Source: Prochlorococcus marinus subsp. pastoris str. CCMP1986 (GTDB lineage: Bacteria; Cyanobacteriota; Cyanobacteriia; PCC-6307; Cyanobiaceae). Taken from it: a DNA stretch of 32,000 nt. Position 1 is the stretch's first letter, and each line of letters opens with the position of its first letter. The DNA lies in contig NC_005072.1 in assembly GCF_000011465.1 (NCBI RefSeq), positions 1,140,001 through 1,172,000 of the forward strand. The letters are read 5' to 3'. Below the pieces are notes generated by a model. The model worked only from the letters and a program-made list of their open reading frames with translations, was not told the DNA's origin and searched no databases. A program made the translations under genes and the position numbers. Below are positions 1,786-27,015 of this stretch, one piece after another.

Positions 1786-3243
1786 ATGATAAATAATTTA
1801 AAATCAGATTTAAAATTGCAGCCTGTAATTTTATCAGGAGGAAAGGGTTCAAGACTTTGGCCTTTATCTAGAGAATGTTATCCAAAACAATATTTAGAAT
1901 TATATGAGGGAAATAAGTTTTCGTTATTGCAGAATACTTTTTTAAGACTAAATCTCTTAGATAACTTAGAGCCTCCAATAATAATTTGTAATGAATCACA
2001 AAGATTTCTTGTGGCGGAACAAATGTTAAAGATAAATGTAGTGCCAAAGTCCATAATTATTGAGCCCGTAGGTAAAAATACAGGGCCCGCAGTAGCCCTA
2101 GCGGCAATTGCTGCAAATAAAAAAGGACAAGATCCAGCTCTTCTTATCCTTTCTTCGGATCATGTGATTAATGATTCGAAAGAGTTTACAGCAACCATAA
2201 TTGAAGGACTAATACATGCAAAGCAAGGAAAAATTGTCTCTTTTGGAGTAGTTCCAACATATCCAGAAACTGGTTATGGATATATTGAATCACTTGAAGA
2301 ACTAACCAATTTTAAGAAATCAAGTTCTATAAAAAGATTTATAGAAAAACCTGAAGAAGATAGGGCTAAACAATTTATTCAAAGCAATCTATTTACTTGG
2401 AATAGTGGGATTTTCCTATTTAAAGCATCAACTATTATTCAAGAATTCAATAGATTCGCTCCTGAAATTATTCATATTTGTAAGAAATCTATTGTTAGTG
2501 CAGTAAGTGATCTTGATTTTCTTAGATTAAACAATGAAATTTTTCAAAAATGTCCAAATGTTCCAATCGATATCGCAATAATGGAAAAAACAGATAAAGG
2601 TACTGTAGTTAGGCTAAATGCTGGATGGAGTGATATTGGAAATTGGGAATCTGTTTGGGATAATTCGACTAAAGACAATGAAAGAAACTCCACTAAAGGT
2701 AATGTTCTACTGATGGAATCTCATGGATGCTATTTAAGGAGTGAAAAAAGACTCCTTGTAGGTCTAGGACTAAAAGATCTTATAGTAATTGAAACTGATG
2801 ATGCCGTACTTGTAATTAATAAAAGCTCAGCTCAAAAAGTTAAGCATATAGTAGAGGATTTAGAGAAAAAAAATATTTCAGAAGGAAAAGTCAATAAAAA
2901 AATATACAGGCCATGGGGAAGTTATACTTCAATTTCTAATGGAATTACTTGGCAAGTAAAAAAATTAGAGGTAAATCCAGGTGCGAGTCTATCTTTACAG
3001 ATGCATTTTCACAGAACTGAGCATTGGATAATTGTTGATGGCACTGCAAAAGTTGAAATTAATAATCACGAAACGATCTTAAATCAAAACGAAAGTATAT
3101 ATGTTCCTATTCAGGCGAAACATCGATTATCTAATCCAGGAAACGAGAACTTAATAATAATAGAAGTACAAAATGGTAAATATCTTGGGGAGGACGATAT
3201 TGTAAGGTTCGAAGATATCTATGGAAGAAAAAAAGATCTTTAG
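1786..3243 (+). CDS. manC: Bifunctional mannose-1-phosphate guanylyltransferase / mannose-6-phosphate isomerase (type II PMI-GMP)
   Basis: N-terminal ILSGGKGSRLWPLSRECYPKQY nucleotidyltransferase motif. C-terminal cupin region RPWGSY...VKKLEVNPGASLSLQMHFHRTEHWIIVDGTAKVEI. The 485-aa length is typical. Confidence 0.9.
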   Translation: MINNLKSDLKLQPVILSGGKGSRLWPLSRECYPKQYLELYEGNKFSLLQNTFLRLNLLDNLEPPIIICNESQRFLVAEQMLKINVVPKSIIIEPVGKNTGPAVALAAIAANKKGQDPALLILSSDHVINDSKEFTATIIEGLIHAKQGKIVSFGVVPTYPETGYGYIESLEELTNFKKSSSIKRFIEKPEEDRAKQFIQSNLFTWNSGIFLFKASTIIQEFNRFAPEIIHICKKSIVSAVSDLDFLRLNNEIFQKCPNVPIDIAIMEKTDKGTVVRLNAGWSDIGNWESVWDNSTKDNERNSTKGNVLLMESHGCYLRSEKRLLVGLGLKDLIVIETDDAVLVINKSSAQKVKHIVEDLEKKNISEGKVNKKIYRPWGSYTSISNGITWQVKKLEVNPGASLSLQMHFHRTEHWIIVDGTAKVEINNHETILNQNESIYVPIQAKHRLSNPGNENLIIIEVQNGKYLGEDDIVRFEDIYGRKKDL

Positions 3244-5323: not shown

Positions 5324-6697
5324 TTAAGAAGAAATACTTTTTGAAGATAAAGCTTTTGGATCTTTTTTAAGCAACTTAACAATCTCTATTAACATTAATA
5401 TTGAAAATAAAATATAAGGTAGAGATCCCAGTCCCCTTAAATAATTGGGTAAACCGTGAAACATATGACATGAAAGTGCATAAAAAGTTTGATAGAAATT
5501 CAAAAAACAAATCCACATTAAAAAAGAAATAAATAATCTTCCATTTTTCATTAATTTTTTATCGTAAATATATCTAATCATCATTGGCGAAACAGCGAAG
5601 AAGAAAAGAAAGAATTGCGGATGTCCTACTTTATAAAAAGTAAACGCAAATGCCAAAGTTAATATAACTGCTGGTAAAAGATCGATCTTATTTTTATATA
5701 TGAAAAATAGTACGATAAGTAATACTAAACCCATAGCGAATAAACTATATTCATCAAGATTAATTCCTACAATTCTTCTGAAGAAATTAAAGAAAGAGAG
5801 ATGCTTAGAATGCCTGTCGGCCGCATATAATATTGGGTTTAGGGTTGAATTACCCCAAATAATTATTGAAGTGAATAATATACTAATTATTGATAAAAAA
5901 TACGAAGTAAAAAAATTAACATCAATTCTTTTTTTCCTTAGGATAAATAATGGAGCAATGAAGACTGGGTAGACTTTTATCATCGTTGCTAAAGCAAGAG
6001 ATATACCAGACAGCAAGCTATTTTGTTTTGTATTGTTGGATAAAGATAGATATAACGATAAAACTATTAAACCAGCCACTGGGGTATCATTAAGTCCATA
6101 ATATGCAATGGTTAGTAGACAAAATGGTGAAAAAGCAAATACTGAAAATATTCTTATTTTTGAAAAAGTATCTAATTCTCTTTTAAAATTTAAGGGAGAT
6201 ATTGAAGATAAATACATTGGAATTGCAAATATACAAACGAATACAAATTTTGGTAAGGAATTGTTTATAACTGCTAATGGGGCAAAAATATTATGGATTG
6301 GTAAGTAAGCATTATCTGTTCCAATCCAAGGATCCAATCCTTGATTAATAATTGCCCAATGATTTAAATAAGCTTTATAGTCCATGACTCCATTCCTACT
6401 AGCTATAAATATCAGTCCTATCGAAACTAAACAATAAAAAGCAGTTAATTTTATTGATTTATATTCATTTTTTATATTAATAAACGTTCCATCAATTTTT
6501 TCATTGCTTAAAATTTTTAAAATAGCAGCTTTTAGTAAATATGAAGAGAAAATTGCAGATATTAAAGCCTGGGAAAAAATAATAAAAGTATTAATATCAT
6601 AATTAAACATATAGTATAGTTTGCAAACTAATGCTGCCTGAAAAATAATTACTGGCGTTGAAAAGATAAAAAAAAAGAGGTATCTATTAATTTTCAT
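5324..6697 (-). CDS. GT-C-like polytopic membrane glycosyltransferase candidate (DUF2029/GT87-like), paralog A
   Basis: 457 aa, multi-pass membrane protein. The first-loop motif MDYKAYLNHWAIINQGLDPWIGTDNAYLPIHNIFAPL resembles the D..Y...G..P(Y/W)....Y.P pattern of polyprenyl-phosphate-sugar-dependent GT-C enzymes. By eye it is roughly two-thirds identical to the ORF at 14292-15683. Confidence 0.5.
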   Translation of the reverse strand: MKINRYLFFFIFSTPVIIFQAALVCKLYYMFNYDINTFIIFSQALISAIFSSYLLKAAILKILSNEKIDGTFINIKNEYKSIKLTAFYCLVSIGLIFIASRNGVMDYKAYLNHWAIINQGLDPWIGTDNAYLPIHNIFAPLAVINNSLPKFVFVCIFAIPMYLSSISPLNFKRELDTFSKIRIFSVFAFSPFCLLTIAYYGLNDTPVAGLIVLSLYLSLSNNTKQNSLLSGISLALATMIKVYPVFIAPLFILRKKRIDVNFFTSYFLSIISILFTSIIIWGNSTLNPILYAADRHSKHLSFFNFFRRIVGINLDEYSLFAMGLVLLIVLFFIYKNKIDLLPAVILTLAFAFTFYKVGHPQFFLFFFAVSPMMIRYIYDKKLMKNGRLFISFLMWICFLNFYQTFYALSCHMFHGLPNYLRGLGSLPYILFSILMLIEIVKLLKKDPKALSSKSISS

Positions 6698-6829
6698 TTT
6701 TAGATAGAGTTATTGTTGAATTTATCATTTAATTTAAAAATCAATTCTTATATGTTTTACAATTGATATACATTAAATTTATTATAAAATATCTCTTAAT
6801 AAGAATTACTTCAAGTTATTAGTAATTAT

Positions 6830-7942
6830 TCAAGTTTTTTTCCACACAAATTTAGTAGATGCTGTGTAATTCCATATAAAACAAATAGCTATTCCAAATA
6901 TTTGTGCCCAAAATACATTTCCCAAAATATACGTATAAAAAGCTGTTGATAGCGCAAAATTCGTAATTAATGGTATGGATGTGATGAGAAGAAATCTTAT
7001 TAATCCAATTAATAGTAAATTCCCACTTAATTTATTTGATCTAAATGTTAAAGAGTTATTAATCAAAAAGTTTGATGTTGCAGAAACTAATATTGAAAAT
7101 AAAATAACTTGTTCAAAGTCTAAGTTCGTAATACTCATTAAAAAGTAAGTAATAGATAATTGAATAATTATTCCACTGATGCCTATGAGCCCAAAACTTA
7201 TAGCTCGGCGAGGAAGTAATTTAAAACTTAAATTATGCAATATTGAAATTACAAAATTCCATAAAATTGGCAATTCGATTATAGTTTTATCGTTTAAATT
7301 GGCATCTACGATAAGAGGTATTTCTCCAATTGATAGATTTCCTTTACTCATTGCAAGAAATTCAAAAATAAAATTAAATCCATCAATTTCAATCTTATTA
7401 ATTAATCTTTTACATACAGTCTTTCTTAATACAAAGAAACCTGTCATGCAGTCTGTAATGTGTGAATATTTGTTAGAAAGACAATACTTTCCAAGTTTGT
7501 TGGTAATTTTAGAAATTTTTTTTCTTTTCTTGTTCAGGCCTTTTATTTCAGAACTATAGTTAAATCGACTGCCTAATACTAAATCTAGATTATTTTCGAT
7601 TAACTTATCAAAGGCGGTTATCAGTGAATTTGGGTCATATTGACAATCGTCTTCTATTACAGCTATAAATTCTGATGATGATTCAATTATTAATTTCTTT
7701 ATTGAATTTGAAACTTCTGATTTTTTTACTTTATTAATTAGTTTGATTTTTTTATTCTTGAGAGATGAATTTCCTTCTATTCCTGCAAATTCAGTATCAA
7801 GGCTCAAAATAATAATCTCAATATCAAAAAGCTTTTTAAAATTATTTATCTTATTAAGCAAGATATATAAATTCTCGAATTTTTCGTTTTTTATAAGCAG
7901 GATAGTTATATTCGGTTTATCTTTTTTTTTAGTTGATCGCAT
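6830..7942 (-). CDS. Polyprenyl-phosphate glycosyltransferase (GT2, DPM1/GtrB-like) fused to a C-terminal GtrA-like 4-TM domain
   Basis: GT2 core motifs are VIEDDCQYDP (DxD...Q..P), LVLGSRF, DCMTGFFVLRK and GFNFIFEFL. The C-terminal ~130 aa has four TM segments with GtrA-type signatures (RRAISFGLIGISG..., FLINNSLTFR, IWNYTASTKFVW). Confidence 0.7.
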   Translation of the reverse strand: MRSTKKKDKPNITILLIKNEKFENLYILLNKINNFKKLFDIEIIILSLDTEFAGIEGNSSLKNKKIKLINKVKKSEVSNSIKKLIIESSSEFIAVIEDDCQYDPNSLITAFDKLIENNLDLVLGSRFNYSSEIKGLNKKRKKISKITNKLGKYCLSNKYSHITDCMTGFFVLRKTVCKRLINKIEIDGFNFIFEFLAMSKGNLSIGEIPLIVDANLNDKTIIELPILWNFVISILHNLSFKLLPRRAISFGLIGISGIIIQLSITYFLMSITNLDFEQVILFSILVSATSNFLINNSLTFRSNKLSGNLLLIGLIRFLLITSIPLITNFALSTAFYTYILGNVFWAQIFGIAICFIWNYTASTKFVWKKT

Positions 7943-8063
7943 GATATAAGTAACATATAAATAAGATCAAAGCTTTTAATAATTAAAATTTAACTATTAA
8001 TTATATTTAAATTAACTTCAAAATCTTAATTTAAAAACTTTTTTATACTTAAGAATAAATAAT

Positions 8064-9017
8064 TTATCTTATCTGATTAGAGGGCACATTATTTCTTTCC
8101 CTCTCAATAACCAAAGGCAATTTTAATGATCTTTGATTAATAAAACCAATATATTCTCCTATAATTCCTAAAGCGAATAATATAGTCCCTGCAAATAATA
8201 AGTTTGTAACAGAGATCATTGCAATACCAAAGGCAAATTTGGTCCAAAAAAGTACTTTCGTTATTATGACTATTAAAGAAAATATTATTGCTAAGCAGCC
8301 AAGGGTTAACCCAAGAAAAGTTATTAATCTCATGGGTTTTCTTGAAGAAGTAACAATTCCCAGAACTCCAAAGTCGATTAGAAATGATAAAGAAGCAGAA
8401 CTTTTCCCTGATTTTCTATCTGCACTGACATAGCTGATTGTTGACCATTTAAAACCTGTCGCACATACTAAACCTTTTACAAAAGGATAAGAATCAATAG
8501 AATCCCTTAAACTTTTAATCACTTTTCTATCGTAGATTCCGTAGCCCGTAGTATTCCTGACCATTTTTTGATCGGATAATTTTGATAAAACATAGTAATA
8601 TAATTTTTTTGTAAGAAAAAGAATTTTATTTTCCCTACTTGTTCTTCTGACAGCAAAAATTACTAAATTTTCTGTTTCTTCCCATTGTTTTATTAACTCA
8701 GGAATTAGTTCAGGCGGATCTTGAAGATCAGACATCAAGAAGATGTTTGCATCAGCGTCTGGAGCCAAAAGAACATTTGCTGATGATCTCACAAAACCAA
8801 AGTTTGATACGTTTAAAATATATCCTATCCTTTCATCTTTCTTCATTAATTCTTTAATGAAATCCAATGATGAGTCTTTCGAACAGTTATCTGCAAAAAT
8901 TATTGAGAAATTATATCCTTTAATATCTTCTAGGACTTTATCAATACGATAATAAAGCTCATCTAAGTTTTTTCTTTCGTTGAAGCATGGAATGCATATA
9001 GCAATTGATCTTTTCAA
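8064..9017 (-). CDS. Polyprenyl-phosphate sugar synthase, ArnC/GtrB-type GT2 with two C-terminal TM helices
   Basis: IAICIPCFNERKNL, FADNCSKDSS, MSDLQDPPELIP, then two C-terminal TM segments ending in the ArnC/GtrB-like GIIGEYIGFIN. The only in-frame start after the upstream stop is TTG at 9017. Confidence 0.75.
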   Translation of the reverse strand: MKRSIAICIPCFNERKNLDELYYRIDKVLEDIKGYNFSIIFADNCSKDSSLDFIKELMKKDERIGYILNVSNFGFVRSSANVLLAPDADANIFLMSDLQDPPELIPELIKQWEETENLVIFAVRRTSRENKILFLTKKLYYYVLSKLSDQKMVRNTTGYGIYDRKVIKSLRDSIDSYPFVKGLVCATGFKWSTISYVSADRKSGKSSASLSFLIDFGVLGIVTSSRKPMRLITFLGLTLGCLAIIFSLIVIITKVLFWTKFAFGIAMISVTNLLFAGTILFALGIIGEYIGFINQRSLKLPLVIERERNNVPSNQIR

Positions 9018-9094
9018 AATTGAAATTTCAAATTAATATTCAAGCATTATATTATTAAATGAAGTTAAAAAAGAATAAATAAGCTCTTATTTAA

Positions 9095-10144
9095 TTAAAT
9101 TAGTGTTGATGTCCAACTAATCATATCCTTAATACCTTTTTTGTAATTTATTTTAGGTTCCCAACCAAGTTTAATCTTAGCTTTTTTAATTGATGCGACA
9201 AAGAAATCTTGATCACTTTGTCTTCTTGGCAATTTATTATAAGAAAGTTGCTCTATATCTAATAGCTCAGACAACAAATTAAATAATTCTAATAAACTTA
9301 ATGAATTTTCTAAACCACCGCCGATATTAAATATTTCACCATTTAATTTTTCTTTTGCAAAAAATGCCTTTTCATATAGATTTACAAGATCATCCGCATG
9401 AAGAACATCTCTAACTTGTTTACCAGAGCCAGAAATTGTAAATGGTAATAACTTTTGATTAGATTTTTGCTGTTTTTTTTGTTCTATTGCTTTTTTGCAG
9501 AACCAACCTATCCATCCTTGATCTTTAGAGGCATACTGTCTCCCTCCATAAATAGAAGAATGTCTAAATACAACAGTTTTTAATCCATATATCCTTGCCC
9601 AATCTCGAACATATTGATCAGCAGAGCCTTTTGAACAGCCGTATGGAGTTGAAAAATCAAGAGGGAGATTTTCATTGAAACCCTCTGGATATTCTGAAAC
9701 ACTAAATCTAGTACTCATTTCTTTGTAATTCAACCATCCTAAATCTCCATAAACTTTATTTGTGCTGCTATAGGCTAATAAAGAATGAGGTGAATATTTG
9801 CGCATTGCCTCAAGAACATTAAATGTTCCTATTAGGTTGGTTTCTAAGTCAGTTCTTGGATCTTTAAGAGAGGTTGTCATTGCTACTTGACCAGCAACGT
9901 GACAAATATAATCAAATGGTCCATTAACCTCAAAAATATTTTCTAATTTATTTTTGTTTTTTATATCAATTTGGAAATTTTTTAAATTTTTATGATTTGT
10001 AGAGTTTTTGAGCCAACTTAAATTGATATCTGAGCCTCTTCTAACTAATGAGTCTATAATAAAAACTTCATAGTTCTTTTTAAGAAAGAAATTGGATAAA
10101 TTACTTCCTAGAAATCCACAACCACCTGTAATTAAAATCTTCAT
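9095..10144 (-). CDS. rfbE: CDP-paratose 2-epimerase (CDP-tyvelose epimerase)-like SDR
   Basis: MKILITGGCGFLGSNLS, HVAGQVAMTTS, YSSTNKVYGDL, PYGCSKGSADQY, VVFRHSSIYGGRQ..DQGWIGWFC, FTISGSGKQVRDVLHADD, FNIGGG..NSLSLLELF. This closely mirrors my recollection of Salmonella Tyv/RfbE along its whole length. Confidence 0.8.
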   Translation of the reverse strand: MKILITGGCGFLGSNLSNFFLKKNYEVFIIDSLVRRGSDINLSWLKNSTNHKNLKNFQIDIKNKNKLENIFEVNGPFDYICHVAGQVAMTTSLKDPRTDLETNLIGTFNVLEAMRKYSPHSLLAYSSTNKVYGDLGWLNYKEMSTRFSVSEYPEGFNENLPLDFSTPYGCSKGSADQYVRDWARIYGLKTVVFRHSSIYGGRQYASKDQGWIGWFCKKAIEQKKQQKSNQKLLPFTISGSGKQVRDVLHADDLVNLYEKAFFAKEKLNGEIFNIGGGLENSLSLLELFNLLSELLDIEQLSYNKLPRRQSDQDFFVASIKKAKIKLGWEPKINYKKGIKDMISWTSTLI

Positions 10145-10170: not shown

Positions 10171-11025
10171 TTAAATTTTTTTTTCATATAAATTATTTAA
10201 ATCAGGCACGAACGAATTTGGTTCATTTTCTCTTTCAGGAATTACTCCATTTAATAACTGACCTTTGGCTTTTAATCTTTTCCATTCTTTTTTAGCAAAA
10301 TCAATAATTGATATCGGAGAGCCACTGCCAATATTAAAAACTAGTGGAGTACCCTTTATAACATCTTTTCTTGAACAGCAATTTATTAAATGTTCCGCAA
10401 CTTCTTCAACAGGTATGAAATCTCTAATTTGAGTACCTTTAGTCATCTTGAAATCTAGATTATTTAATGCCGCATTTCTTAAAGATGGCCAAAAATTCAT
10501 TTCATTTTGCCCTAATCCATAAGCTGAAAAAATCCTTGGGTAAATGAATTCTGTTTGATAATTTTTGCATAATGCTTCTAACATATAAAAACTTGCGACC
10601 TTACTTCTAGCATAATTATTTGTTGGAATTAAAGGGGCATTACTTGGAATCATTTTATATCTATCAGAGCTCAAACCATATTCATGGCAGGAGCCTGTAA
10701 AAATGCATCTTTTTACATTAGCTTTAATTGATTCTTCCATTAATTTAATTGATCCAAGGATATTTGTTTTTGTTAATTCTTGAATAGAAGCCTCTTTAGG
10801 ACTTACACCTGCTGAAGCCAAATTAAATAATATATCTACTTCTTCAAGGTCATACATATTTATATCTAGTAAATCTTTGTTAAGCCATTTAATATTTTTG
10901 TCATGATTTTGGCTACTTATATAAGATCTATTTAATGCAATGATTTCATATCCTTTTTTTTTTGCAAGATTTGTTAGATGTGAACCTATAAATCCAGAAG
11001 CGCCTGTTATAAATAATTTCATCAT
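10171..11025 (-). CDS. Short extended-SDR NDP-sugar reductase, candidate CDP-paratose/abequose synthase (RfbS/RfbJ-like)
   Basis: 284 aa with KLFITGASGFIGSH and a YARSK (YxxxK) motif. Its size and its position between rfbG and the rfbE-like gene fit the 4-ketoreductase step. Family-level call only. Confidence 0.55.
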   Translation of the reverse strand: MMKLFITGASGFIGSHLTNLAKKKGYEIIALNRSYISSQNHDKNIKWLNKDLLDINMYDLEEVDILFNLASAGVSPKEASIQELTKTNILGSIKLMEESIKANVKRCIFTGSCHEYGLSSDRYKMIPSNAPLIPTNNYARSKVASFYMLEALCKNYQTEFIYPRIFSAYGLGQNEMNFWPSLRNAALNNLDFKMTKGTQIRDFIPVEEVAEHLINCCSRKDVIKGTPLVFNIGSGSPISIIDFAKKEWKRLKAKGQLLNGVIPERENEPNSFVPDLNNLYEKKI

Positions 11026-11040: not shown

Positions 11041-12123
11041 TTATGATTTTAAAAAATGTTCAAGATCTTCTTTACAATATTTTTCGGTTTCACTCGAAAA
11101 TAAATAATAGTTTTTGTACCACAAAAATGTTCTTTTAACGGATTCATCAAAATCCCATCTTGGTTCCCAATTAATTAAATCTTTTGCTTTATCTGTATTT
11201 AATCCGAGGAATCTTGCCTCATGAAAATCTTGTTTACTTTCAATAATTTTCCACGAAACAGGCCAAAACTCCTCAGCTTTATGAACTAAATCTAATACTT
11301 TTTTATTTGAGTCAAGATTTGGTCCAAAGTTAAATGAAGATGCTAGATTGATATTATTTTCAAAAAGTTTTTCAGCTAGTTTTAAATAACCAGATAAAGG
11401 ATCTAAAACGTGTTGCCAGGGTCTTACCGAATCGGGATTTCGTATAGTGATTATTTTTTCAGAAATTATAGACCTTATCAGATCAGGAATAATTCTGTTA
11501 TCAGACCAATCCCCTCCACCAATAACGTTTCCTGATCTTACACTAGCAATTAGTAGATTATTTTTTTGAAAGTTTGAATTACCACAAAAACTTGATCTAA
11601 ATGATTCTATAGCAATTTCGGCTGCCGCTTTACTACTACTATATGGATCATGTCCTCCTAAGGGATCAGTTTCTTTGAAATAATTTTCTCGATCATTATT
11701 TCTATAAACTTTATCAGTAGTTATACAAATGCAAACGCATTTATTTTTAATAAATTTCAATGAATTCAGTAGATTAAAAGTTCCCATTACATTTGTTTCC
11801 CAAGTTTTTAAAGGCTCTAAATAACTTTCAATAACTAATGGTTGTGCAGCCATATGGAAAATAATGTCAGGTTGAATATCAGATATCAATTTTTCTAAGA
11901 GACTTTGATTTGTAATGTCAGTAACATGATGATTTATCTTTTGCTGTAGTTTAAGTTCTTCAAATAAATTTGGGGATGTAATTGGTTCTAAACTAATTCC
12001 ATAAATATTTGCTCCCATTTGCAAAAGCCAATATGAAAGCCAAGAACCTTTAAAACCTGTATGCCCAGTTATTATTACTTTTTTTTTATTCCAAAAAGGA
12101 ATCTTGGGGTTTCTCAAATTCAT
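11041..12123 (-). CDS. rfbG: CDP-glucose 4,6-dehydratase
   Basis: FWNKKKVIITGHTGFKGSWLSYWL, DPYSSSKAAAE and RSGNVIGGGDW motifs typical of RfbG/DdhB. 360 aa. Confidence 0.85.
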   Translation of the reverse strand: MNLRNPKIPFWNKKKVIITGHTGFKGSWLSYWLLQMGANIYGISLEPITSPNLFEELKLQQKINHHVTDITNQSLLEKLISDIQPDIIFHMAAQPLVIESYLEPLKTWETNVMGTFNLLNSLKFIKNKCVCICITTDKVYRNNDRENYFKETDPLGGHDPYSSSKAAAEIAIESFRSSFCGNSNFQKNNLLIASVRSGNVIGGGDWSDNRIIPDLIRSIISEKIITIRNPDSVRPWQHVLDPLSGYLKLAEKLFENNINLASSFNFGPNLDSNKKVLDLVHKAEEFWPVSWKIIESKQDFHEARFLGLNTDKAKDLINWEPRWDFDESVKRTFLWYKNYYLFSSETEKYCKEDLEHFLKS

Positions 12124-12142: not shown

Positions 12143-12910
12143 CTACCAAATTTTCCAAGGCGCTTTATTAGATTCCCATAAATCTTGCAAAACCATCTTA
12201 TCTCTTAAAGTATCCATTGGCTGCCAAAAACCGCTGTGGTGAAATGCAGATAGTTGATTTAACTCTGCAAGTTTTTGCATTGGCTTTTGTTCCCATGAAC
12301 AAAAGTCGTTTTCTATAAAATCTATTGTTTCAGGTTGAAGCACAAAAAAACCGCCGTTAATCCAGTTACCATCACCTTTTGGTTTCTCATTAAACCCTAG
12401 AACTCTACCTCTTTCAAAAGCTAAAGAACCAAACCTTCCAGGGGGCTGAACTGCTGTAAGCGTCGCTTTTCTTCCTTTTTTAAAATGGAAATCTATTAGT
12501 TTACTTATATTTACATCAGCCAAACCATCTCCATATGTGAAGCAGAAAGTTTCATTCCCAATATATTCTTTTACTCTTGCAAGCCTTCCTCCAGTCAAAG
12601 TATCTTTACCCGTATCTACAAGAGTGACCTTCCAATCTTCAGAATCCACATTATGGGTAGTAATAGAATTCTTTTGAAGATCTACAGTAAAGTCTCTTGA
12701 ATGAAGATAATAATTTGCAAAATATTCCTTTATTAAATATCCCTTATAACCACAACAAATTATAAATTCTTTGATGCCATAACAACTATAAATTTTCATG
12801 ATATGCCATAAAATTGGTAGTCCACCAATTTCAATCATTGGCTTAGGTTTAATTGTTGTTTCCTCTGAAAGTCTCGTACCTAATCCACCAGCAAGTATAA
12901 CGGCTTTCAT
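12143..12910 (-). CDS. rfbF: Glucose-1-phosphate cytidylyltransferase
   Basis: MKAVILAGGLGTRLSEETTIKPKPMIEIGGLPILWHIMKIYSCYGIKEFIICCGYKGYLIKEYFANY is canonical RfbF/DdhA. The tracked start at 12928 is a TTG. The ATG at 12910 gives the canonical MKAVILAGG N-terminus. Confidence 0.9.
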   Translation of the reverse strand: MKAVILAGGLGTRLSEETTIKPKPMIEIGGLPILWHIMKIYSCYGIKEFIICCGYKGYLIKEYFANYYLHSRDFTVDLQKNSITTHNVDSEDWKVTLVDTGKDTLTGGRLARVKEYIGNETFCFTYGDGLADVNISKLIDFHFKKGRKATLTAVQPPGRFGSLAFERGRVLGFNEKPKGDGNWINGGFFVLQPETIDFIENDFCSWEQKPMQKLAELNQLSAFHHSGFWQPMDTLRDKMVLQDLWESNKAPWKIW

Positions 12911-12957
12911 ATTTTTATAATTTGTCAAAGTTATTTAAGTGGGAAAGGGATTTTTTT

Positions 12958-14157
12958 TTAAAATTTTGACAAAAATTCATTTATTGTTTTATGTAATCTA
13001 GTAAACATTCTATCAGTTAAACCATGGTGGACAGGTAATAAAACACCTTGCTTCATGATTAAATCAGAATTTTTATATCCATATTCACTAATTTTTTTTT
13101 CAATGTTTTTAGTCATGGGTTGTTTAAGAATATTGCCAGTAAACACGACTCTAGTTTGGATATTACGTTCTTCTAAATAAATTTGAAATTCTCTTCTTGT
13201 AAAAGGTGCATCTTCTTTGATTAATATTGGATAAGCAAGCCATGCTGTATCAACGTTTTCATTTTGTAACGGATTCATAAAGAATTGATTGTGGTTCTCA
13301 AAAAAATCAAATTGTCTATTGAAGTTCTTTTTTCTAGTTTGAATATTTTGGTTTAATTTTTTTAGTTGTGCTAAGCCAAAAGAAGCCCCAACTTCATTTC
13401 CTTCGACATTGTATCCCACTTTTTCAAAGACGAATTTCGCATCATATTCAATGCCTTCTAAAGAAACATTAAATCTATTGTTTATCGATTCACTTTTTTC
13501 ATCAAATAAAGATGAACTTCTTCCCCATGACCTTAATAGTTTAGCCTCAGATAAAACGTTTTCATCGTTTATAGCTAAAGCTCCTCCATTGCCAGCACAA
13601 TTAATGATATGTGATCCATAAAAACTTGTTATTGATATATCTGAATAAAAGCCACTACTTTTACCATCTATTTTTGCTCCTAACGTATCTGCAGAATCCT
13701 CAATAACAACTAAGTTATATTTATCCGCAATATTTCTTATTAGTGGCCAATTACAAAGATTTCCAAGTAAATTTGGCGCTAGTATAGCTCTCGTGTTTTT
13801 ATTAATATTTTTTTCAATTTGCTCGCAATCTATACAATAAGTGGTTAGATCAACATCTACAAAAACAGGAACTAAATTGTTTTTAACGAGGCAGCCGACA
13901 GAAGTTGAAAAAGTTAAAGCAGGAGTGATCACCTCTGAGCCTTCAGGTAAATTTAATGCTTCAATTCCTATGTATAGAGCAGATGACCCAGAATTCACAT
14001 ATAAACAATATTTTTTATCAAAAAGTTTGGCTATTTTGCTTTCAAATAATCTTGAGTAATTACCCATTTGAGTTGACTCACCAAGACATTTAATAACTGC
14101 ATCTATTTCTTCTCTGCCATATACAGTTTTTGCGTAAGAAATTGGCTCTAAATCCAA
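12958..14157 (-). CDS. rfbH: RfbH/E1-like CDP-4-keto-6-deoxyglucose 3-dehydrase homolog (DegT/DnrJ/EryC1 fold), atypical: no Fe-S cysteines
   Basis: VPVFVDVD, IADKYNLVVIED and SFYGSH match the RfbH pattern. The His at residue 183 (codon 13609-13611) sits where aminotransferases carry the PLP-lysine. GYNV..NEVGASFGLAQLKKL also fits. The last Cys is residue 187. The only possible start is TTG at 14157. Confidence 0.75.
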   Translation of the reverse strand: MDLEPISYAKTVYGREEIDAVIKCLGESTQMGNYSRLFESKIAKLFDKKYCLYVNSGSSALYIGIEALNLPEGSEVITPALTFSTSVGCLVKNNLVPVFVDVDLTTYCIDCEQIEKNINKNTRAILAPNLLGNLCNWPLIRNIADKYNLVVIEDSADTLGAKIDGKSSGFYSDISITSFYGSHIINCAGNGGALAINDENVLSEAKLLRSWGRSSSLFDEKSESINNRFNVSLEGIEYDAKFVFEKVGYNVEGNEVGASFGLAQLKKLNQNIQTRKKNFNRQFDFFENHNQFFMNPLQNENVDTAWLAYPILIKEDAPFTRREFQIYLEERNIQTRVVFTGNILKQPMTKNIEKKISEYGYKNSDLIMKQGVLLPVHHGLTDRMFTRLHKTINEFLSKF

Positions 14158-14291: not shown

Positions 14292-15683
14292 TTAAGATGA
14301 AAGACTTTCTGAAGATAAAGCTTTTTGATCTTTTTTTAATAATTTTATAATCTCAATCAACATTAATGTTGAAAATAAAATATAAGGTATTGCTCCAAAT
14401 CCTCTTATGTAAAAAGAGTAGCCTTTTGTCATTAAGCAATAAAGTTGATAAAAAGTCTCGTAAAAATTTAAATAACAAATCCACATTAAATATGAAATGA
14501 ATAATCTTCTATTTTTATGTAATTTTCTATCATAAATGTATCTGATAGTCATGGGTGCTGCAGCAAAGAAAAAAAGAAAAAACTGTGGATGTCCTAATTT
14601 ATAAAAAGTGAAGCCTGAAGATGAAGTTAGAATTACAGCTGGCAAAAGATCTATCTTATGTTTGTACATTAAAAAAAGTACAGTCAATAGCACTAAGGCC
14701 ATAGCATATATGCTGTATTGATCTAAGTTAAGACCTAAAATTTTTCGAGAAAAATTAAAGAAAGATAGATGTTTAGAATGCATTTCAGTGGCCCAAAAAA
14801 CTGATTTCAAGGTTGAATCCCCCCAATGGAATATAGAAATGCTTAGTATGCTAATTATTGATAAGAGATAAGAAGTAAAAAAAGTTATATCTATTTTTCT
14901 TTTTCTTAAAACAAATAAAGGTGCAACAAATATTGGATATATTTTCACCATCGTTGCCAATGCAAGTGAGATTCCAGATAAAACGCTATTGATATTTTTG
15001 AGATTTGAAATCGATAGAGATAAAGATAAAACAATTAAACCTGCTACAAGAGTGTCATTATGGCCGAAATATGCAGTTACTAATAAACAAAAAGGAGAAA
15101 AAGCGAAAATTAGGAAAATTTTTAATTTTGCAATTTCATCAATTTCCCTTTTAAAATTTAATGGAAAAATTGAAGAAAAATACATAGGGATTAAGAAAAA
15201 ACAACCCCAAAAAAGTTTTGGCAAAGAATTATTAATAGCTGCTAATGGTGCAACAATATTGTGAATTGGTAAGTAAACATTATCTGTTCCAATCCAAGGA
15301 TTTAAGCCTTGATTAATTAAAGCCCACTGATCTAAATAAGGTCTATAATCTAGTATTCCTTTATGACTAGCTACGTAAATAAGTATCATTGCAATTATGT
15401 AGTATAGAAAAGATATTTTTATTGCCTTATACTCATTTTTTTTATTTAAAGATTTTGCGGGAACTAAATCTTTATCTATGACTTTTAGAATTGTAGACCT
15501 TAGAAGATATGAAGAAAAAATTGCAGTAAATAAAGCTTGTAAAAGAATAACAAAATTAAAATTTTCATTAAAATTGGATATTCTATGAAGTTTGCAAACT
15601 AAGGCTCCCTGGAAAATAAATACTGGTGCTGAAAATACTAAAAGATAGAAATATCTATTATTCTTTATTCTAGAAAGAATCAT
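14292..15683 (-). CDS. GT-C-like polytopic membrane glycosyltransferase candidate (DUF2029/GT87-like), paralog B
   Basis: 463 aa, colinear with 5324-6697 from end to end. Examples: LDYRPYLDQWALINQGLNPWIGTDNVYLPIHNIVAPL; the C-terminus LIEIIKLLKKDQKALSSESLSS matches LIEIVKLLKKDPKALSSKSISS. Confidence 0.5.
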   Translation of the reverse strand: MILSRIKNNRYFYLLVFSAPVFIFQGALVCKLHRISNFNENFNFVILLQALFTAIFSSYLLRSTILKVIDKDLVPAKSLNKKNEYKAIKISFLYYIIAMILIYVASHKGILDYRPYLDQWALINQGLNPWIGTDNVYLPIHNIVAPLAAINNSLPKLFWGCFFLIPMYFSSIFPLNFKREIDEIAKLKIFLIFAFSPFCLLVTAYFGHNDTLVAGLIVLSLSLSISNLKNINSVLSGISLALATMVKIYPIFVAPLFVLRKRKIDITFFTSYLLSIISILSISIFHWGDSTLKSVFWATEMHSKHLSFFNFSRKILGLNLDQYSIYAMALVLLTVLFLMYKHKIDLLPAVILTSSSGFTFYKLGHPQFFLFFFAAAPMTIRYIYDRKLHKNRRLFISYLMWICYLNFYETFYQLYCLMTKGYSFYIRGFGAIPYILFSTLMLIEIIKLLKKDQKALSSESLSS

Positions 15684-16081: not shown

Positions 16082-17035
16082 CTAATATATATTTTTTTTA
16101 AAGTCTTTAATAGTATTCTCAATACCCTCTTCAAGTGATATTTTACTTTCCCAACCTAATTTTTTAATCCTAGTAATATCCAATCTTTTCAGAGGAGTTC
16201 CATTGGGTTTTGTTTTATCCCAAAAAATAGAACCTTTAAAACCTACTTTATTTTTTATCAAAATTGCTAAATCTAAAATCGATATGTCTTTACCAGTTCC
16301 AACATTTAAGAAAGAGCAATTATTTAAACTAAATTGAAAATTTTCTAAGGTAAAAACTGATGCCTCAGCTAGGTCATCAACATGTAAAAATTCTCGTTTA
16401 GGGGATCCATCACCCCAACAAATCACCTGATCAAGATTATTAATTTCTGCAGTTACGAATTTTTTTATCAGTGCAGCAAAAACATGACTTTCATTATCTT
16501 GGTAATTATCATTTGGTCCATATAAATTTGTTGGCATGAGAGAAAAAGCATCAAAATTTTTTTGTTTCCTTAAAGCTTCACAAAATTTCATGCCAACAAT
16601 TTTTGCTAAAGCATAGTTTTCATTAGTTTTTTCTAAATAATTACTTAGTAAATATTCCTCTCGTATTGGCTGTGTGCATTTTTTGGGATAGGCACAACTA
16701 CTACTTAAAAAAAGTAACCTTTTCACAGAATTTTGATATGCAGCTTCAACAACGTTTGTTTGAATTTGAATATTCTCAATAATAAAATCATATGGGTAAA
16801 TGCTGTTTGCTAGTATTCCTCCTACTTTAGCTGCTGCAAGAATAACAATATCTGGACTATTTTCCTTAAACCAATTTTTAACTTTATTTTGATCCCTTAA
16901 ATCAATTTCTTTCCTTGAAACTGTAATTATATTTTTATATCCAAATTTTTTTAAAGCGCGACAGATTGCAGAGCCTGCCAGTCCATTATGACCTGCGACA
17001 AAAATAGAATCACTTTTCGAAATTAAATTCTTCAT
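16082..17035 (-). CDS. fcl: GDP-L-fucose synthase (GDP-4-keto-6-deoxy-D-mannose 3,5-epimerase/4-reductase)
   Basis: IFVAGHNGLAGSAI, SSSCAYP, YALAKI, PTNLYGPNDNY, REFLHVDDLA. 317 aa, immediately downstream of gmd. Confidence 0.9.
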   Translation of the reverse strand: MKNLISKSDSIFVAGHNGLAGSAICRALKKFGYKNIITVSRKEIDLRDQNKVKNWFKENSPDIVILAAAKVGGILANSIYPYDFIIENIQIQTNVVEAAYQNSVKRLLFLSSSCAYPKKCTQPIREEYLLSNYLEKTNENYALAKIVGMKFCEALRKQKNFDAFSLMPTNLYGPNDNYQDNESHVFAALIKKFVTAEINNLDQVICWGDGSPKREFLHVDDLAEASVFTLENFQFSLNNCSFLNVGTGKDISILDLAILIKNKVGFKGSIFWDKTKPNGTPLKRLDITRIKKLGWESKISLEEGIENTIKDFKKNIY

Positions 17036-17068: not shown

Positions 17069-18142
17069 TTATTGTTTAGCAAGTTTCAACTTATCAAATT
17101 CCACCATTTCGTGTATTAATTTTTCTAAAGTAATAGAGCTTCTCCATCCAAGTTTATTAATAGCTTTAGTAGGATCACCCAACAAACTATCTACTTCAGA
17201 TGGCCTAAAATATCTTTTATCAACTTTGATAATTATTTTATTATTTTCATTTCTAATTCCAACCTCTTGCAAACCTGAGCCCTCCCAGCGAATAGCTGGT
17301 AGATTTCGGTTTTTTCTATTCCAGCCGAGCTCACATGCTACCAATTCAATAAATTCTTTGATACTTTTATTTTTTCCAGTAGCTATTACATAATCATCTG
17401 CATAATCTTGCTGAAGCATAAGCCATTGCATTTTCACATAATCCTTAGCATGACCCCAATCTCTCAAAGAATTTAAATTTCCAAGATAAAGTATTTCATC
17501 AATACCTGAATCAATTCTCACAAGACCCCTTGTGATTTTTCTCGTAACAAATGTTTCTCCTCTCCTTGGACTTTCATGATTAAACAAAATACCATTACAT
17601 GCGTAAATACCATATGCATCTCTATAATTTTTTATTATCCAATATGAATACAATTTAGCCACGCCATAGGGACTTTGAGGGTTAAAAGGAGTATCTTCGT
17701 TTTGAGGGGATTTACATACTCTCCCATATAACTCACTAGTACTAGCTTGGTAAATTTTAGTCTTTTTTTCTAAGTTTAATATCCTAACAGCTTCAAGAAT
17801 TCTTAATGTACCAAGAGCATCGCAATTTGCCGTATATTCTGGAGTTTCAAAGCTAACAGCTACATGACTTTGTGCAGCGAGATTATAAATTTCATCTGGT
17901 TCAATTTCTTTTATTAACCTAATAATATTTGTACTGTCAACTAAATCTCCGTAATGGAGTATTAATTGTGGAGATATTTCATGTGGGTCTTGATATAAAT
18001 GATCAATTCTTTCAGTATTAAAACTACTCGATCGCCTCTTTATTCCGTGAACAATGTACCCCTTATCTAAAAGGAGTTCAGCAAGATAACTTCCATCTTG
18101 TCCAGTAATACCTGTAATTAATGCTACTTTTGAGCTATTCAA
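17069..18142 (-). CDS. gmd: GDP-mannose 4,6-dehydratase
   Basis: [73 protein letters not shown]. The in-frame start at 18142 is TTG and no ATG is available. Confidence 0.92.
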
Positions 18143-23767: not shown

Positions 23768-24445
23768 TTGTTATATGAAACACAAAAAATAAAATTGTTA
23801 GATAATGGTCATCATATAAATTTTTTTTATAATAATAAACTTTTCCTTCCCAAAGATAATAAATTAAGGCCAGCTTTGTTCCTTGACAGAGATGGTGTAA
23901 TAATTAAAGAAAAACACTTCATATCTAAAGCAACTGACGTCGAATTAGAAAATGGAATTAATGATCTAATATATTTAGCTAATATGCTTCAATTGCCAAT
24001 AGTAATTATCACCAATCAATCTGGAATAGCACGAAAAATCACAAAATGGGAAAATTACTTTAAAGTAACAGAAAAAATGATAAATCTTATAAATAAAGAC
24101 AATACTATAATTGCAATTTATGCAAATGGATTAGGTACAGAATCTCCCAACTATTCATGGAGGAAACCAAGTCCTTCTATGATTTTAAACGCAGCAAATT
24201 ATCTAAAATTAGATCTATCAAAATCACTTTTGGTTGGGGACAGATTAAGTGATTTAATTTCTGGTTTCAATGCAGGTTTATTAAATCTTTTTCATGTACG
24301 TACTGGACACGGAAACTTGGAAAGAGAGGATGTTAAAAAATTTTTTAGTAAAAACGATCATTCTGATTTAATAAAAATAAAATATATTAATAAAATAGGG
24401 GAAGAATTATTTCATGATCTCCAAGTTTTGGTTGGGCAGCAATGA
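23768..24445 (+). CDS. gmhB: HAD-superfamily D,D-heptose 1,7-bisphosphate phosphatase-like (GmhB-like); start codon uncertain
   Basis: HAD motif I FLDRDGVII, motif II ITNQSGI, the WRKPSP loop and motif IV VGDRLSDL. The tracked start is TTG, and no ATG lies upstream of motif I. That gives a ~35-aa N-terminal extension relative to typical GmhB. Confidence 0.65.
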   Translation: MLYETQKIKLLDNGHHINFFYNNKLFLPKDNKLRPALFLDRDGVIIKEKHFISKATDVELENGINDLIYLANMLQLPIVIITNQSGIARKITKWENYFKVTEKMINLINKDNTIIAIYANGLGTESPNYSWRKPSPSMILNAANYLKLDLSKSLLVGDRLSDLISGFNAGLLNLFHVRTGHGNLEREDVKKFFSKNDHSDLIKIKYINKIGEELFHDLQVLVGQQ

Positions 24446-25665
24446 GCTTGAAGAATGGAGAAATTATTATAATTGGTGGAGGAATTGTTGGATTAACAAT
24501 TGCATACCAGATTATCAAAAGAGGTATTTCGAAAAATATTATTATTTTAGAAAAAGAAAATAATTTAGGTTTGCATACCTCAGGCAGAAATAGCGGAGTC
24601 TTACACGCAGGAATATATTATAAACCTGGCTCCCTTAAGTCAAAAGTATGCATTGAGGGAGGCAAGAGACTTAAGGCATGGATAAAAGATAGAGGACTAA
24701 AAACAAATCCATGTGGGAAAATAATAATTCCTACTAAGTATGAACAAGATTCTCAAATAGATTTACTTTTTGAAAGGGGCTTAAAAAATGGAGCAAAAGT
24801 CGAAATTATTAATAATAAAAAACTGAAAGAAATTCAACCAAATACAAATTCCATAACAAATAGAGCATTATGGAGTCCTAATACTGCGGTAGTAAACCCA
24901 TTAGAGATAATAAATCAATTAGAAATTGAACTTAAAGATAAGGGAGTAATTTTCATAAAAGGAAGCAAAATAAGAAAGATAAATAAAAAGGAAAATAAAA
25001 TTCACACTGAAGATAATTTAATAATAAAGTATAAATATTTTTTTAATTGTGCTGGTCTTCAATCGGATAGGGTTGCACATATGTGCAATGTTGGCAAAAA
25101 CTTAACAATATTGCCTTTTAAAGGTTTTTATTGGAAGATAAAAAATAATGACGCTTTTGATATCAAAACGAATATATATCCAGTTCCTGATTTATCTGTT
25201 CCTTTCCTTGGCGTTCACTTCACGCCAAGTGGTGATAAAAAAAATATTTTTATTGGACCAACTGCGACAGTGGCTTTTGGTAGAGAAAATTACAAATTTT
25301 TTGAAGGATTAGAACCATTAATGTTGATTTCAAATCTATTTATTCTTTCAAAGCAATATTTGATGAATAAGAATAAATTTAGACAATATGTTCATCAACA
25401 ATCTCTTCAGGCTTTTGAACCATTCTTAATAAAATCAGCTCAGAATTTAATTCCATCAATCAAATTGAGTGATATTGAAATAAGTGAAAAACTAGGAATT
25501 AGGGCGCAGCTTTTTGATAATAAAAAAATGAATTTAGTAGATGATTTTATTTGTACAAATGATGAAAATTCTACACATGTTTTAAATGCAGTTTCTCCAG
25601 CTTTTACATCAAGTTTCTCACTGGCAGATTTAATAATTAATTCTTCAAAATTAAATAAAGAATAA
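24442..25665 (+). CDS. FAD-dependent oxidoreductase, L-2-hydroxyglutarate oxidase/dehydrogenase (LhgO)-like
   Basis: IIIIGGGIVGLTIA dinucleotide fold, then HTSGRNSGVLHAGIYYKPGSLKS. Also PFKGFYW...IYPVPDLSVPFLGVHFT, GIRAQL and HVLNAVSPAFTSS, matching the LhgO pattern end to end. ATGA overlap with the upstream gene. Confidence 0.75.
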   Translation: MSLKNGEIIIIGGGIVGLTIAYQIIKRGISKNIIILEKENNLGLHTSGRNSGVLHAGIYYKPGSLKSKVCIEGGKRLKAWIKDRGLKTNPCGKIIIPTKYEQDSQIDLLFERGLKNGAKVEIINNKKLKEIQPNTNSITNRALWSPNTAVVNPLEIINQLEIELKDKGVIFIKGSKIRKINKKENKIHTEDNLIIKYKYFFNCAGLQSDRVAHMCNVGKNLTILPFKGFYWKIKNNDAFDIKTNIYPVPDLSVPFLGVHFTPSGDKKNIFIGPTATVAFGRENYKFFEGLEPLMLISNLFILSKQYLMNKNKFRQYVHQQSLQAFEPFLIKSAQNLIPSIKLSDIEISEKLGIRAQLFDNKKMNLVDDFICTNDENSTHVLNAVSPAFTSSFSLADLIINSSKLNKE

Positions 25666-25666
25666 T

Positions 25667-26386: not shown

Positions 26387-26388
26387 TG

Positions 26389-27000
26389 ATGGAAAAAGTT
26401 TTTAAAAATTTTACAGAATTATACCTAAAGAATTTAGTTTCAAGTTTTGAACCAAAGATTATTGAAAAGATAGAAATACTTGCAAATGATTTAAATTTAA
26501 GCTGGAAGAATGGAGCTAATGTTTTTATATGCGGAAATGGAGGTAGTGCGGGAAATGCAATGCATATTGCAAATGACTTTCATTACGGAGTTGGTTGTAA
26601 AAGGGATCCACAATCAAATGATATAAAAAATAAACCAGGAATAAAAATTATAGCTCTGCCATCAAACCCGAGTATTATTACATGCTTGGCAAATGATATT
26701 GGTTATGAAAATATCTACTCTCACCAATTAAAAGTCCTTGGGAATCTAAATGATATATTAATTGTTTTATCAGGCAGCGGAAATTCTAAGAATGTAATAA
26801 ATGCTATAGTTGAAGCTCATAAAATTGGAATTAAAACTTATTCAATTACTGCTTTTGATGGAGGTAAATGCAAAGAGATTTCAAAAGAAAATATTCATTT
26901 TGAAATTAATGATATGCAAATAGCAGAAGATACTCAATTAATTCTTTTTCATATGTGTATGCAATGGCTTTCAAATACTAATAATCAAGAAATAGAATAG
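26389..27000 (+). CDS. gmhA: Phosphoheptose isomerase (SIS domain)
   Basis: FICGNGGSAGNAMHIANDF, ALPSNPSIITCLANDIGYENIY, VLSGSGNSKNVINA. The track starts at GTG 26386, which overlaps the upstream stop. The adjacent ATG at 26389 is preferred. Confidence 0.8.
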   Translation: MEKVFKNFTELYLKNLVSSFEPKIIEKIEILANDLNLSWKNGANVFICGNGGSAGNAMHIANDFHYGVGCKRDPQSNDIKNKPGIKIIALPSNPSIITCLANDIGYENIYSHQLKVLGNLNDILIVLSGSGNSKNVINAIVEAHKIGIKTYSITAFDGGKCKEISKENIHFEINDMQIAEDTQLILFHMCMQWLSNTNNQEIE

Positions 27001-27015
27001 TTATTAAAAAGTTAA

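Follow-up and report, generated by a model that had tools for sequence, protein, structure and literature searches.

A predicted iron–sulfur cluster-free sugar 3-dehydratase of the RfbH/E1 type in a CDP-glucose operon of Prochlorococcus marinus MED4

Radical deoxygenation by the enzyme pair E1/E3, which combines pyridoxamine 5'-phosphate (PMP) with iron–sulfur (Fe-S) chemistry, is textbook biochemistry and is assumed for all cytidine diphosphate (CDP)-3,6-dideoxyhexose pathways (abequose, paratose, tyvelose, ascarylose, and yersiniose). A locus of Prochlorococcus marinus MED4 raises the question whether C-3 deoxygenation of a CDP-sugar can be completed by an E1-like enzyme that has no cluster. 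The window analyzed here, a 32,000-nucleotide stretch of this genome (NC_005072.1, positions 1,140,001 to 1,172,000), includes an open reading frame (ORF) for an RfbH/E1-like protein, hereafter the target, inside a long polysaccharide-biosynthesis island (Table 1). The results presented below make it probable that the target is a cluster-free CDP-4-keto-6-deoxy-D-glucose 3-dehydratase that would need no E3 reductase.

The target protein was 100% identical to CAE19664.1, WP_011132839.1, and UniProt Q7V0Q1 of strain MED4, named "NDP-hexose 3,4-dehydratase" by the submitters and "DegT/DnrJ/EryC1/StrS family aminotransferase" in RefSeq. A match to PF01041 (273 bits, Pfam) assigned it to the fold-type I DegT-family enzymes that depend on PMP or pyridoxal 5'-phosphate (PLP). 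Its score against the NCBIfam RfbH equivalog NF011936 was 307.8 bits, under the cut-off of 423 bits. In HMMER searches of the PDB, E1 (the CDP-4-keto-6-deoxy-D-glucose 3-dehydrase AscC/DdhC/RfbH of Yersinia and Salmonella, 3BCX) ranked first (220 bits, 32% identity) and ColD (WbdK, the GDP-4-keto-6-deoxy-D-mannose 3-dehydratase) second (153 bits, 27–28% identity), and alignment with E1/RfbH extended over the whole length of the protein. An AlphaFold model (predicted local distance difference test, pLDDT, 94; predicted template modeling score, pTM, 0.92) likewise matched E1 3BCX best (template modeling score, TM, 0.89), with aminotransferases and ColD behind (TM ~0.86). All motifs that a first-pass annotation of the window had quoted for this protein (VPVFVDVD, IADKYNLVVIED, SFYGSH, IEDSADTLG, and WGRSSSLFDEKSESI) were found in it. 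Database names in this family were inconsistent: those of entries P0001 and P0102 conflicted, "CDP-4-dehydro-6-deoxyglucose reductase, E1" was also in use, and one homolog was named "NarL family transcriptional regulator."

The first-pass annotation had proposed that a His occupies the position of the Schiff-base Lys of aminotransferases and that the Fe-S cysteines are lacking, and alignments bore out both points. By HMMER as well as MAFFT, His183 was placed opposite E1 His220, the residue that is changed to Lys in the 3BB8 H220K mutant. In the HMMER alignment to 3BCX, IEDSADTLG lay opposite IEDCCDALG and WGRSSSLFDEKSESI lay opposite WGRDCYCAPGCDNTC. A separate MAFFT alignment with Salmonella RfbH (locus L169), in which the ligands are spaced C193-X57-C251-X-C253-X7-C261, placed A156, S215, L217, and I225 of the target in the corresponding columns. 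All four ligand columns were therefore non-Cys in two alignments. Cysteines of the target were located at positions 24, 51, 89, 108, 111, 135, and 187, with none beyond 187. The WGRSSSLFDEKSESI segment, which takes the place of the cluster loop, was modeled with a pLDDT of ~81–85. By MAFFT, S182-H183 of the target aligned with S187-H188 of ColD. Judged from its sequence, the target is an E1/RfbH relative that has the catalytic His and is devoid of any cluster-ligand Cys.

Conservation was analyzed in two sets of homologs. The close set consisted of the 120 closest homologs, which were at least 73% identical to the target and mostly originated from marine metagenomes. SFYGSHIIN and WGRS(S/T)SLFD were kept in all 120, and the replacement motif WGRSSSLFDEKSE(S/A)I occurred in 99 of them, indicating that the replacement segment is under strong constraint. 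For the broad set, the 150 best cluster representatives (50% identity) were taken, and 125 of them were alignable over the motif region. All but one of these 125 had the catalytic His, the remaining one having Lys, and they fell into three groups: four-Cys proteins (RDWGRDCWC...C), ColD-like proteins (RAHGW), and many Cys-poor types. In a neighbor-joining tree of 111 near-full-length sequences, calculated without support values, ColD-like proteins made up a clade of their own close to the aminotransferase outgroup, Salmonella RfbH was nested in the four-Cys clade, and the target belonged to a large Cys-less clade, apart from ColD, that included at least 38 of the 111 representatives.

The four cysteines were kept in 39 of 39 representatives of the four-Cys clade. 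When 81 close and 38 distant members of the Cys-less clade were compared, no Cys column conserved at 85% or more in both groups was found, and the idea that substitute cysteines act as cluster ligands was rejected on this ground. Given the absence of a clade-wide Cys column and the existence of members with only two cysteines, the lowest number encountered, E1-type cluster binding is ruled out for the target. The column of E1 Cys193 held Cys in 74% of distant clade members and in 5% of the near relatives of the target; this residual Cys looks like a leftover from a cluster-bearing ancestor. The catalytic His and other residues of cofactor site and fold (D154, S178, Y180, H183, R213, and K241) were each at least 90% conserved in the clade. 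These patterns indicate that ligand loss is a matter neither of chance nor of local decay, the target being one member of a large, taxonomically broad clade and no Prochlorococcus oddity. Loss of the cofactor ligands would also be expected of an E1 gene that has decayed into a non-functional relic, yet this is hardly conceivable in view of the intact reading frame, the size and age of the clade, the strong conservation of the His, of cofactor residues, and of the replacement motif itself, the synteny kept across phyla (see below), and the confident structure prediction.

PDB entry 9WVY ("putative NDP-4-keto-6-deoxyglucose-3-dehydratase") was considered as a solved member of the clade and rejected, as the target reached only 90 bits against it and it was missed at E 1e-30 in the search with clade member P0143. 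In five E1-like cluster representatives (P0125, P0150, P0170, P0210, and P0263), an intein of ~250 aa was found inside the sequence IED(S/C)|CDxLG. Each intein terminates in VHN and is followed, at the +1 extein position, by the Cys that corresponds to the E1 Fe-S ligand Cys193. In another representative, P0198, an insert occupies a second site, right behind SFYPAH.

Loss of the ligand cysteines coincided with other changes in the active site, in a comparison of 39 four-Cys with 67 Cys-poor proteins whose correlations are not independent of phylogeny. The residue before the catalytic His was Ala in 36 of the 39 four-Cys proteins and Ser in 48 of the 67 Cys-poor proteins. A second His, E1 His221, was present in 34/39 four-Cys proteins versus 24/67 Cys-poor ones, and the Glu of the GEGG motif in 37/39 versus 22/67. 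Close members of the clade, in which this Glu is replaced (INCAGNGG), share the active-site motifs SH-I/V and AGNGG. The target shares IED..D.LG, SFY..H, WGR, and YD.K with E1 and differs from it in having neither [2Fe-2S] ligands nor conserved substitutes, a Ser-His instead of an Ala-His pair, no second His, and (A)GNGG instead of GEGG. In every feature examined the protein appeared 3-dehydratase-like; it departed from E1 in the cluster motif and in the curated family score.

The neighborhood of the gene indicated what its substrate may be. Four genes located directly downstream on the same strand, with gaps of 15–29 nt, encode a glucose-1-phosphate cytidylyltransferase (RfbF), a CDP-glucose 4,6-dehydratase (RfbG), a 284-aa short-chain dehydrogenase/reductase (SDR), and a homolog of CDP-tyvelose 2-epimerase (TyvE). 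The SDR showed 27% identity over 246 aa (E 1e-18) to CDP-abequose synthase of Salmonella. With the target, these genes would on paper make up a complete pathway of the CDP-tyvelose/CDP-paratose type, save E3. GDP-mannose 4,6-dehydratase (GMD) and an Fcl-like protein are encoded 2–4 kb upstream on the same strand, and a gene for ManC is also present in the window. The Fcl-like protein may have a colitose-synthase-like role. The target could, on this basis, be a true ColD analog that acts on GDP-4-keto-6-deoxy-D-mannose supplied by GMD, with the Fcl-like protein as colitose synthase, and one clade member (L073) does lie beside GMD without RfbF or RfbG. This alternative is very unlikely, given that the target gene is tightly packed with RfbF, RfbG, the reductase, and the epimerase homolog, that the gene of a membrane protein lies between it and the GMD/Fcl pair, and that the clade as a whole keeps other company.

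That company was determined by scanning GTDB genomes, one for each species, which yielded 80 loci with proteins 55–75% identical to the target; addition of metagenome loci increased this number to 86. The clade occurred in Prochlorococcus, SAR11, SAR116, SAR86, Methylophilaceae, Pseudothioglobus, Endozoicomonas, Legionella, Coxiellaceae, and Parachlamydiales, and further in Flavobacteriales, Bacteroidales, Verrucomicrobia, and Gemmatimonadaceae. RfbF was encoded beside the Cys-less gene in 75 of the 86 loci and RfbG in 73, across Cyanobacteria, Alpha- and Gammaproteobacteria, Bacteroidota, Verrucomicrobia, Chlamydiae, and Gemmatimonadota, most commonly in the order RfbF-RfbG-dehydratase with abutting genes. 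In contrast, only 7 of 83 loci had GMD near the Cys-less gene, which ties the clade to the CDP-glucose pathway rather than to the GDP-mannose pathway.

The closest species-representative matches to the MED4 protein (L007–L022) were non-cyanobacterial (Methylophilaceae, SAR116, Alphaproteobacteria, and Pseudothioglobus; 72–75% identity). Proteins from other Prochlorococcus were only 69–73% identical to it, values equaled or exceeded by non-cyanobacteria. This identity pattern suggests that the cassette has moved horizontally between marine bacteria. Ten IMG/VR contigs classed as viral (L170–L179) also contained the triad of RfbF, RfbG, and a Cys-less dehydratase 64–68% identical to the target; one of them (L173, triad at 6190–9194) further encoded a divergent RecA/UvsX-like ORF, a GT25 protein, and a pyruvyl transferase. 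These contigs are possibly genuine phage genomes.

For comparison of downstream genes, 81 metagenome loci with four-Cys E1-type genes were assembled (set B; the Cys-less loci formed set A). Thiamine diphosphate (ThDP)-dependent enzymes of ~600 aa resembling YerE and JanthE were encoded downstream in 25 Cys-less and 19 four-Cys loci, with at most 57% identity across the sets. TyvE-like epimerases followed in 7 Cys-less and 5 four-Cys loci, and reductases like the 284-aa SDR in 7 and 10, respectively. RmlC-like epimerases and split transketolases adjoined both kinds of dehydratase. Neighbor clustering gave no partner family specific to Cys-less loci, the families found only in set A being glycosyltransferases and GtrA-like proteins. 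In locus L001, the ThDP enzyme beside the Cys-less gene scored 380 bits to 8RPH, which has been linked to JanthE in a published paper, and it also matched 5AHK. Genes for an HpcH/HpaI aldolase, a methyltransferase, and an SDR follow. This layout is the one described for acyl-branched sugar clusters, in which pyruvate, or keto acids formed by the aldolase, are attached by YerE-type enzymes to the acceptor CDP-4-keto-3,6-dideoxy-D-glucose (PMC9306805).

Natural fusions were found as well, linking Cys-less domains with RmlC, with RmlD-like reductases, or with an RmlB-like 4,6-dehydratase that shares 42% identity with Salmonella RmlB (P0124, P0138, P0164, and P0188). The fusion partners are enzymes that act immediately before or after a 3-dehydratase step. 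Since these partners are of the RmlB, RmlC, and RmlD types, some clade members probably use deoxythymidine diphosphate (dTDP)-sugars, and the fusions suggest single-polypeptide pathways to dTDP-3,6-dideoxyhexoses. Taken together, the shared downstream families and the fusions make both dehydratase types look interchangeable, which argues for one product, a nucleoside diphosphate (NDP)-4-keto-3,6-dideoxyhexose. In view of these shared downstream enzymes, the product of the target is most likely CDP-4-keto-3,6-dideoxy-D-glucose.

The same enzymes bear on the possibility that the target is, in vivo, no deoxygenase at all and instead acts as a His-type 4-aminotransferase, forming CDP-4-amino-4,6-dideoxyglucose, or performs other PLP chemistry on the 4-keto sugar. 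The target shares its fold and Pfam family with DegT/DnrJ/EryC1/StrS aminotransferases such as GDP-perosamine synthase and PseC, RefSeq names it an aminotransferase, and SpnQ, a His-type 3-dehydrase, does transaminate when no reductant is present (PMC8987622). The Schiff-base Lys of these aminotransferases is, however, missing in essentially the entire clade; the adjoining or fused 4-ketoreductases, TyvE-like epimerase, and YerE-like ThDP enzymes need a 4-keto substrate, and specifically a 3,6-dideoxy-4-keto one; and neither an N-acyltransferase nor an N-formyltransferase was consistently adjacent. Aminotransferase or other such PLP chemistry is accordingly considered quite unlikely.

A further point of the first-pass annotation was that no E3 reductase gene lies near the target gene. 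Its observation that the window holds no ORF like ferredoxin-NADP reductase (FNR) was confirmed: no FNR-like or Fer2-domain ORF was detected in the window, either by Pfam (28 ORFs of at least 100 aa) or in a phmmer comparison of Salmonella RfbI with all ORFs down to 70 aa. RfbI of the Salmonella rfb locus L169, which passes Fer2 and FNR motif screens, was used as positive control and as phmmer query, with 164 loci searched. No FNR-like genes were found in 83 Cys-less loci (1369 kb of flanks), where the single small ferredoxin was a plant-type protein of 101 aa encoded 3.3 kb from the Cys-less gene in L060. The 81 environmental four-Cys loci (723 kb of flanks) held one full E3 (L151) and two partial FNR-like ORFs. 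In L131 and L114, FNR-like ORFs of ~230 aa without a ferredoxin domain adjoin E1. Since E3 adjoins only 1–3 of 81 four-Cys E1 loci, its absence beside a Cys-less gene is hardly diagnostic. The absence of E3 from the window therefore holds, but not its weight as evidence for a cluster-free enzyme, and E3 adjacency (0/83 Cys-less versus 1–3/81 four-Cys loci) was dropped as a discriminator. Dedicated adjacent E3 genes are a feature of enterobacterial clusters and not of E1 genes generally; what counts is the missing cluster. Fusion partners were also abandoned as a clue to an electron source: in 20 multidomain relatives, both dehydratase types were fused only to SDR, RmlD, RmlC, or inteins, and no fusion to an FNR or Fer2 domain occurred.

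These data are relevant to a different route, E1-type reduction without a cluster of the enzyme's own, in which an FNR-reduced ferredoxin or flavodoxin would dock and reduce the PMP-glucoseen intermediate and PMP would be remade without glutamate. Such a route would agree with the position of E1 as nearest relative in sequence and fold and with the ferredoxin in L060. The lack of a dedicated adjacent E3 beside most environmental four-Cys E1 genes would also fit the use of general reductases, as reported for SpnQ (PMC8987622). Direct reduction of PMP-glucoseen without an enzyme-bound cluster is nevertheless unprecedented, both characterized enzymes of this route keep four cysteines, a ferredoxin neighbor occurred in 1 of 83 loci, and no redox partner family was enriched beside Cys-less genes. 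This route is regarded as improbable.

E1 removes the 3-hydroxyl in bacterial 3,6-dideoxy sugar biosynthesis. The only 3-dehydratases listed as characterized in a 2022 review are E1, which uses a cluster and E3, SpnQ, which uses a cluster and general reductases, and ColD (PMC8987622). E1 requires the E3 reductase and NADH, and the target presumably cannot take up electrons in that way. SpnQ, the TDP-4-keto-2,6-dideoxy-D-glucose 3-dehydrase of the spinosyn forosamine pathway, resembles the target in being His-type, and it has no dedicated E3 gene (PMC8987622). It differs in retaining the [2Fe-2S] motif, in needing ferredoxin/flavodoxin reductase systems, in acting on a TDP-sugar, and in serving secondary metabolism. 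In ColD, which has no cluster, the PMP-hexoseen adduct is hydrolyzed, and L-glutamate serves to convert PLP back into PMP (PMC8987622). The GDP-heptose C3-dehydratases of Campylobacter jejuni are ColD-like, His-type enzymes for which PLP and L-glutamate alone suffice for C3 deoxygenation (PMC10440746). ColD and the C. jejuni HS:5/HS:11 enzymes share with the target the catalytic His, the fold, the lack of Fe-S, and the Ser-His dyad. As no cluster is possible, the ColD route is therefore the only precedented way for the target to complete C-3 deoxygenation, and a ColD-like, glutamate-driven completion of its reaction is, by this elimination, the likelier outcome.

The steps up to the glucoseen intermediate are common to E1, ColD, and SpnQ. 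In the mechanism proposed for the target, RfbF and RfbG would provide CDP-4-keto-6-deoxy-D-glucose, whose C4 ketone would form a ketimine with the enzyme's PMP. His183 would then take the C4' proton and the 3-OH would be expelled, giving the delta-3,4-glucoseen intermediate. Without electron delivery through a [2Fe-2S] cluster, this intermediate would be hydrolyzed in the manner of ColD to PLP and an enamine, and the enamine would tautomerize and hydrolyze to CDP-4-keto-3,6-dideoxy-D-glucose and ammonia. PMP would be remade by transamination with L-glutamate or another amino acid. Reduction of the product by the 284-aa SDR and epimerization by the TyvE homolog could finally yield a tyvelose- or paratose-like CDP-3,6-dideoxyhexose for a cell-surface glycan.

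Several observations weigh against this proposal. By the bit scores and TM scores given above, the target is closer to E1 than to ColD, and E1 is itself unable to use glutamate for PLP recycling (PMC8987622). In ColD, the second His and the (M/G)EGG glutamate are retained; the clade of the target lacks the former and its close members lack the latter, so that the active site is not simply ColD-like, and its motif (SH-I/V, AGNGG) agrees exactly with neither E1 nor ColD. The tree that separates the groups carries no support values, and an E3-like or other reductase may be encoded elsewhere in the MED4 genome. ColD acts on GDP-sugars in a GMD/ColC context and belongs to the RAHGW clade; the clade of the target is associated with CDP-glucose genes. 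With its Ser-His pair and without the second His and the GEGG Glu, the remodeled active site might rely on a recycling chemistry or amino donor that is not simply that of ColD. The first-pass proposal of a cluster-free, ColD-style dehydratase acting on a CDP-sugar was accordingly upheld as far as E1 likeness, catalytic His, lack of a cluster, and CDP-glucose operon are concerned, while membership of the ColD family was not.

Other genes in the window (Table 1) suggested how the finished sugar might be used. By its position, the ArnC/PgfS-like glycosyltransferase family 2 (GT2) protein likely performs the first transfer step. Together with the GT2-GtrA fusion and the two GT-C-like membrane proteins that bracket the operon, it suggests periplasmic sugar transfer from a polyprenyl-phosphate carrier. 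A separate nucleotide-sugar module of heptose-like composition is encoded on the plus strand.

Table 1. Features of the target gene and of the surrounding window (positions in the 32,000-nucleotide window).
Feature	Position	Strand	Remarks
Cys-less RfbH/E1-like PMP/PLP-dependent sugar 3-dehydratase (predicted)	12958–14157	minus	TTG start, 399 aa, WP_011132839.1
IEDSADTLG	13678–13704	minus	Asp154 is the cofactor-binding Asp; Ala156 in column of E1 ligand Cys193
SFYGSH motif	13609–13626	minus	His183 (codon 13609–13611) at Schiff-base Lys position, preceded by Ser182
WGRSSSLFDEKSESI	13483–13527	minus	Conserved; replaces E1 cluster loop C251-x-C253-x7-C261; S215, L217, and I225 in ligand columns
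RfbF, glucose-1-phosphate cytidylyltransferase	12143–12928	minus	TIGR02623, 445 bits (cut-off 300); 29 nt downstream of target
RfbG, CDP-glucose 4,6-dehydratase	11041–12123	minus	TIGR02622, 531 bits (cut-off 278); makes presumed substrate
SDR, 284 aa, candidate CDP-4-keto-3,6-dideoxyhexose 4-reductase (paratose/abequose-synthase-like)	10171–11025	minus	PF01370; putative function
CDP-tyvelose 2-epimerase homolog, 349 aa	9095–10144	minus	Matches CDP-tyvelose 2-epimerases 9RL0 (437 bits) and 1ORR (378 bits)
GT2 polyprenyl-phosphate glycosyltransferase-like (ArnC/PgfS-like)	8064–9017	minus	NF047588, 147 bits; NF007986, 93 bits; PF00535
GT2 fused to GtrA-like transmembrane domain	6830–7942	minus	PF00535 and PF04138; putative pathway role
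Two polytopic membrane proteins	5324–6697 and 14292–15683	minus	Weak GT87 (GT-C-like) Pfam matches; bracket CDP-sugar operon
Fcl-like gene	16082–17035	minus	414.8 bits, below NCBIfam Fcl cut-off of 500
GMD	17069–18142	minus	GDP-fucose-type module with Fcl-like gene, just upstream of CDP module
ManC	1786–3243	plus	
Heptose-like nucleotide-sugar module	23768–28518	plus	HAD phosphatase; DAO-family FAD oxidoreductase (407 aa); NTP transferase; SIS isomerase; 500-aa protein with cytidylyltransferase-like domain N-terminal to PfkB kinase domain

A literature search, in which the Liu and Holden literature was covered only in part, returned no description of a cluster-free, CDP-specific 3-dehydratase, and nothing relevant on MED4 locus tags or Prochlorococcus dideoxyhexoses was retrieved. 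It is conceivable, at somewhat less than even chances, that the Cys-less clade represents a third class of sugar C-3 deoxygenases, derived from E1 and operating without cluster or E3. Such enzymes would supply CDP-4-keto-3,6-dideoxyglucose, or dTDP equivalents in some members, and this would be the predominant way in which 3,6-dideoxy and acyl-branched sugars are made in abundant marine bacteria (Prochlorococcus, SAR11, SAR86, SAR116, OM43, and SUP05), in Legionella/Coxiella-like bacteria, and possibly from phage genomes.

E1/E3 are difficult to reconstitute: one group failed to achieve combined E1/E3 activity and abandoned enzymatic synthesis of CDP-tyvelose (PMC7851689). If the proposal is correct, a single oxygen-tolerant enzyme that requires only PLP and glutamate would give enzymatic access to CDP-3,6-dideoxyhexoses and to acceptors for YerE-type carboligases. 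Thousands of genes would then be misannotated, as "E1, EC 1.17.1.1" in KEGG and JGI and as "aminotransferase" in RefSeq. An iron-free replacement in bacteria of the iron-starved ocean is an attractive, though speculative, ecological idea. The finding questions the generality of the E1/E3 paradigm: if true, neither Fe-S protein would be needed for these sugars in most of the environmental bacteria that have an rfbF-rfbG-rfbH cassette.

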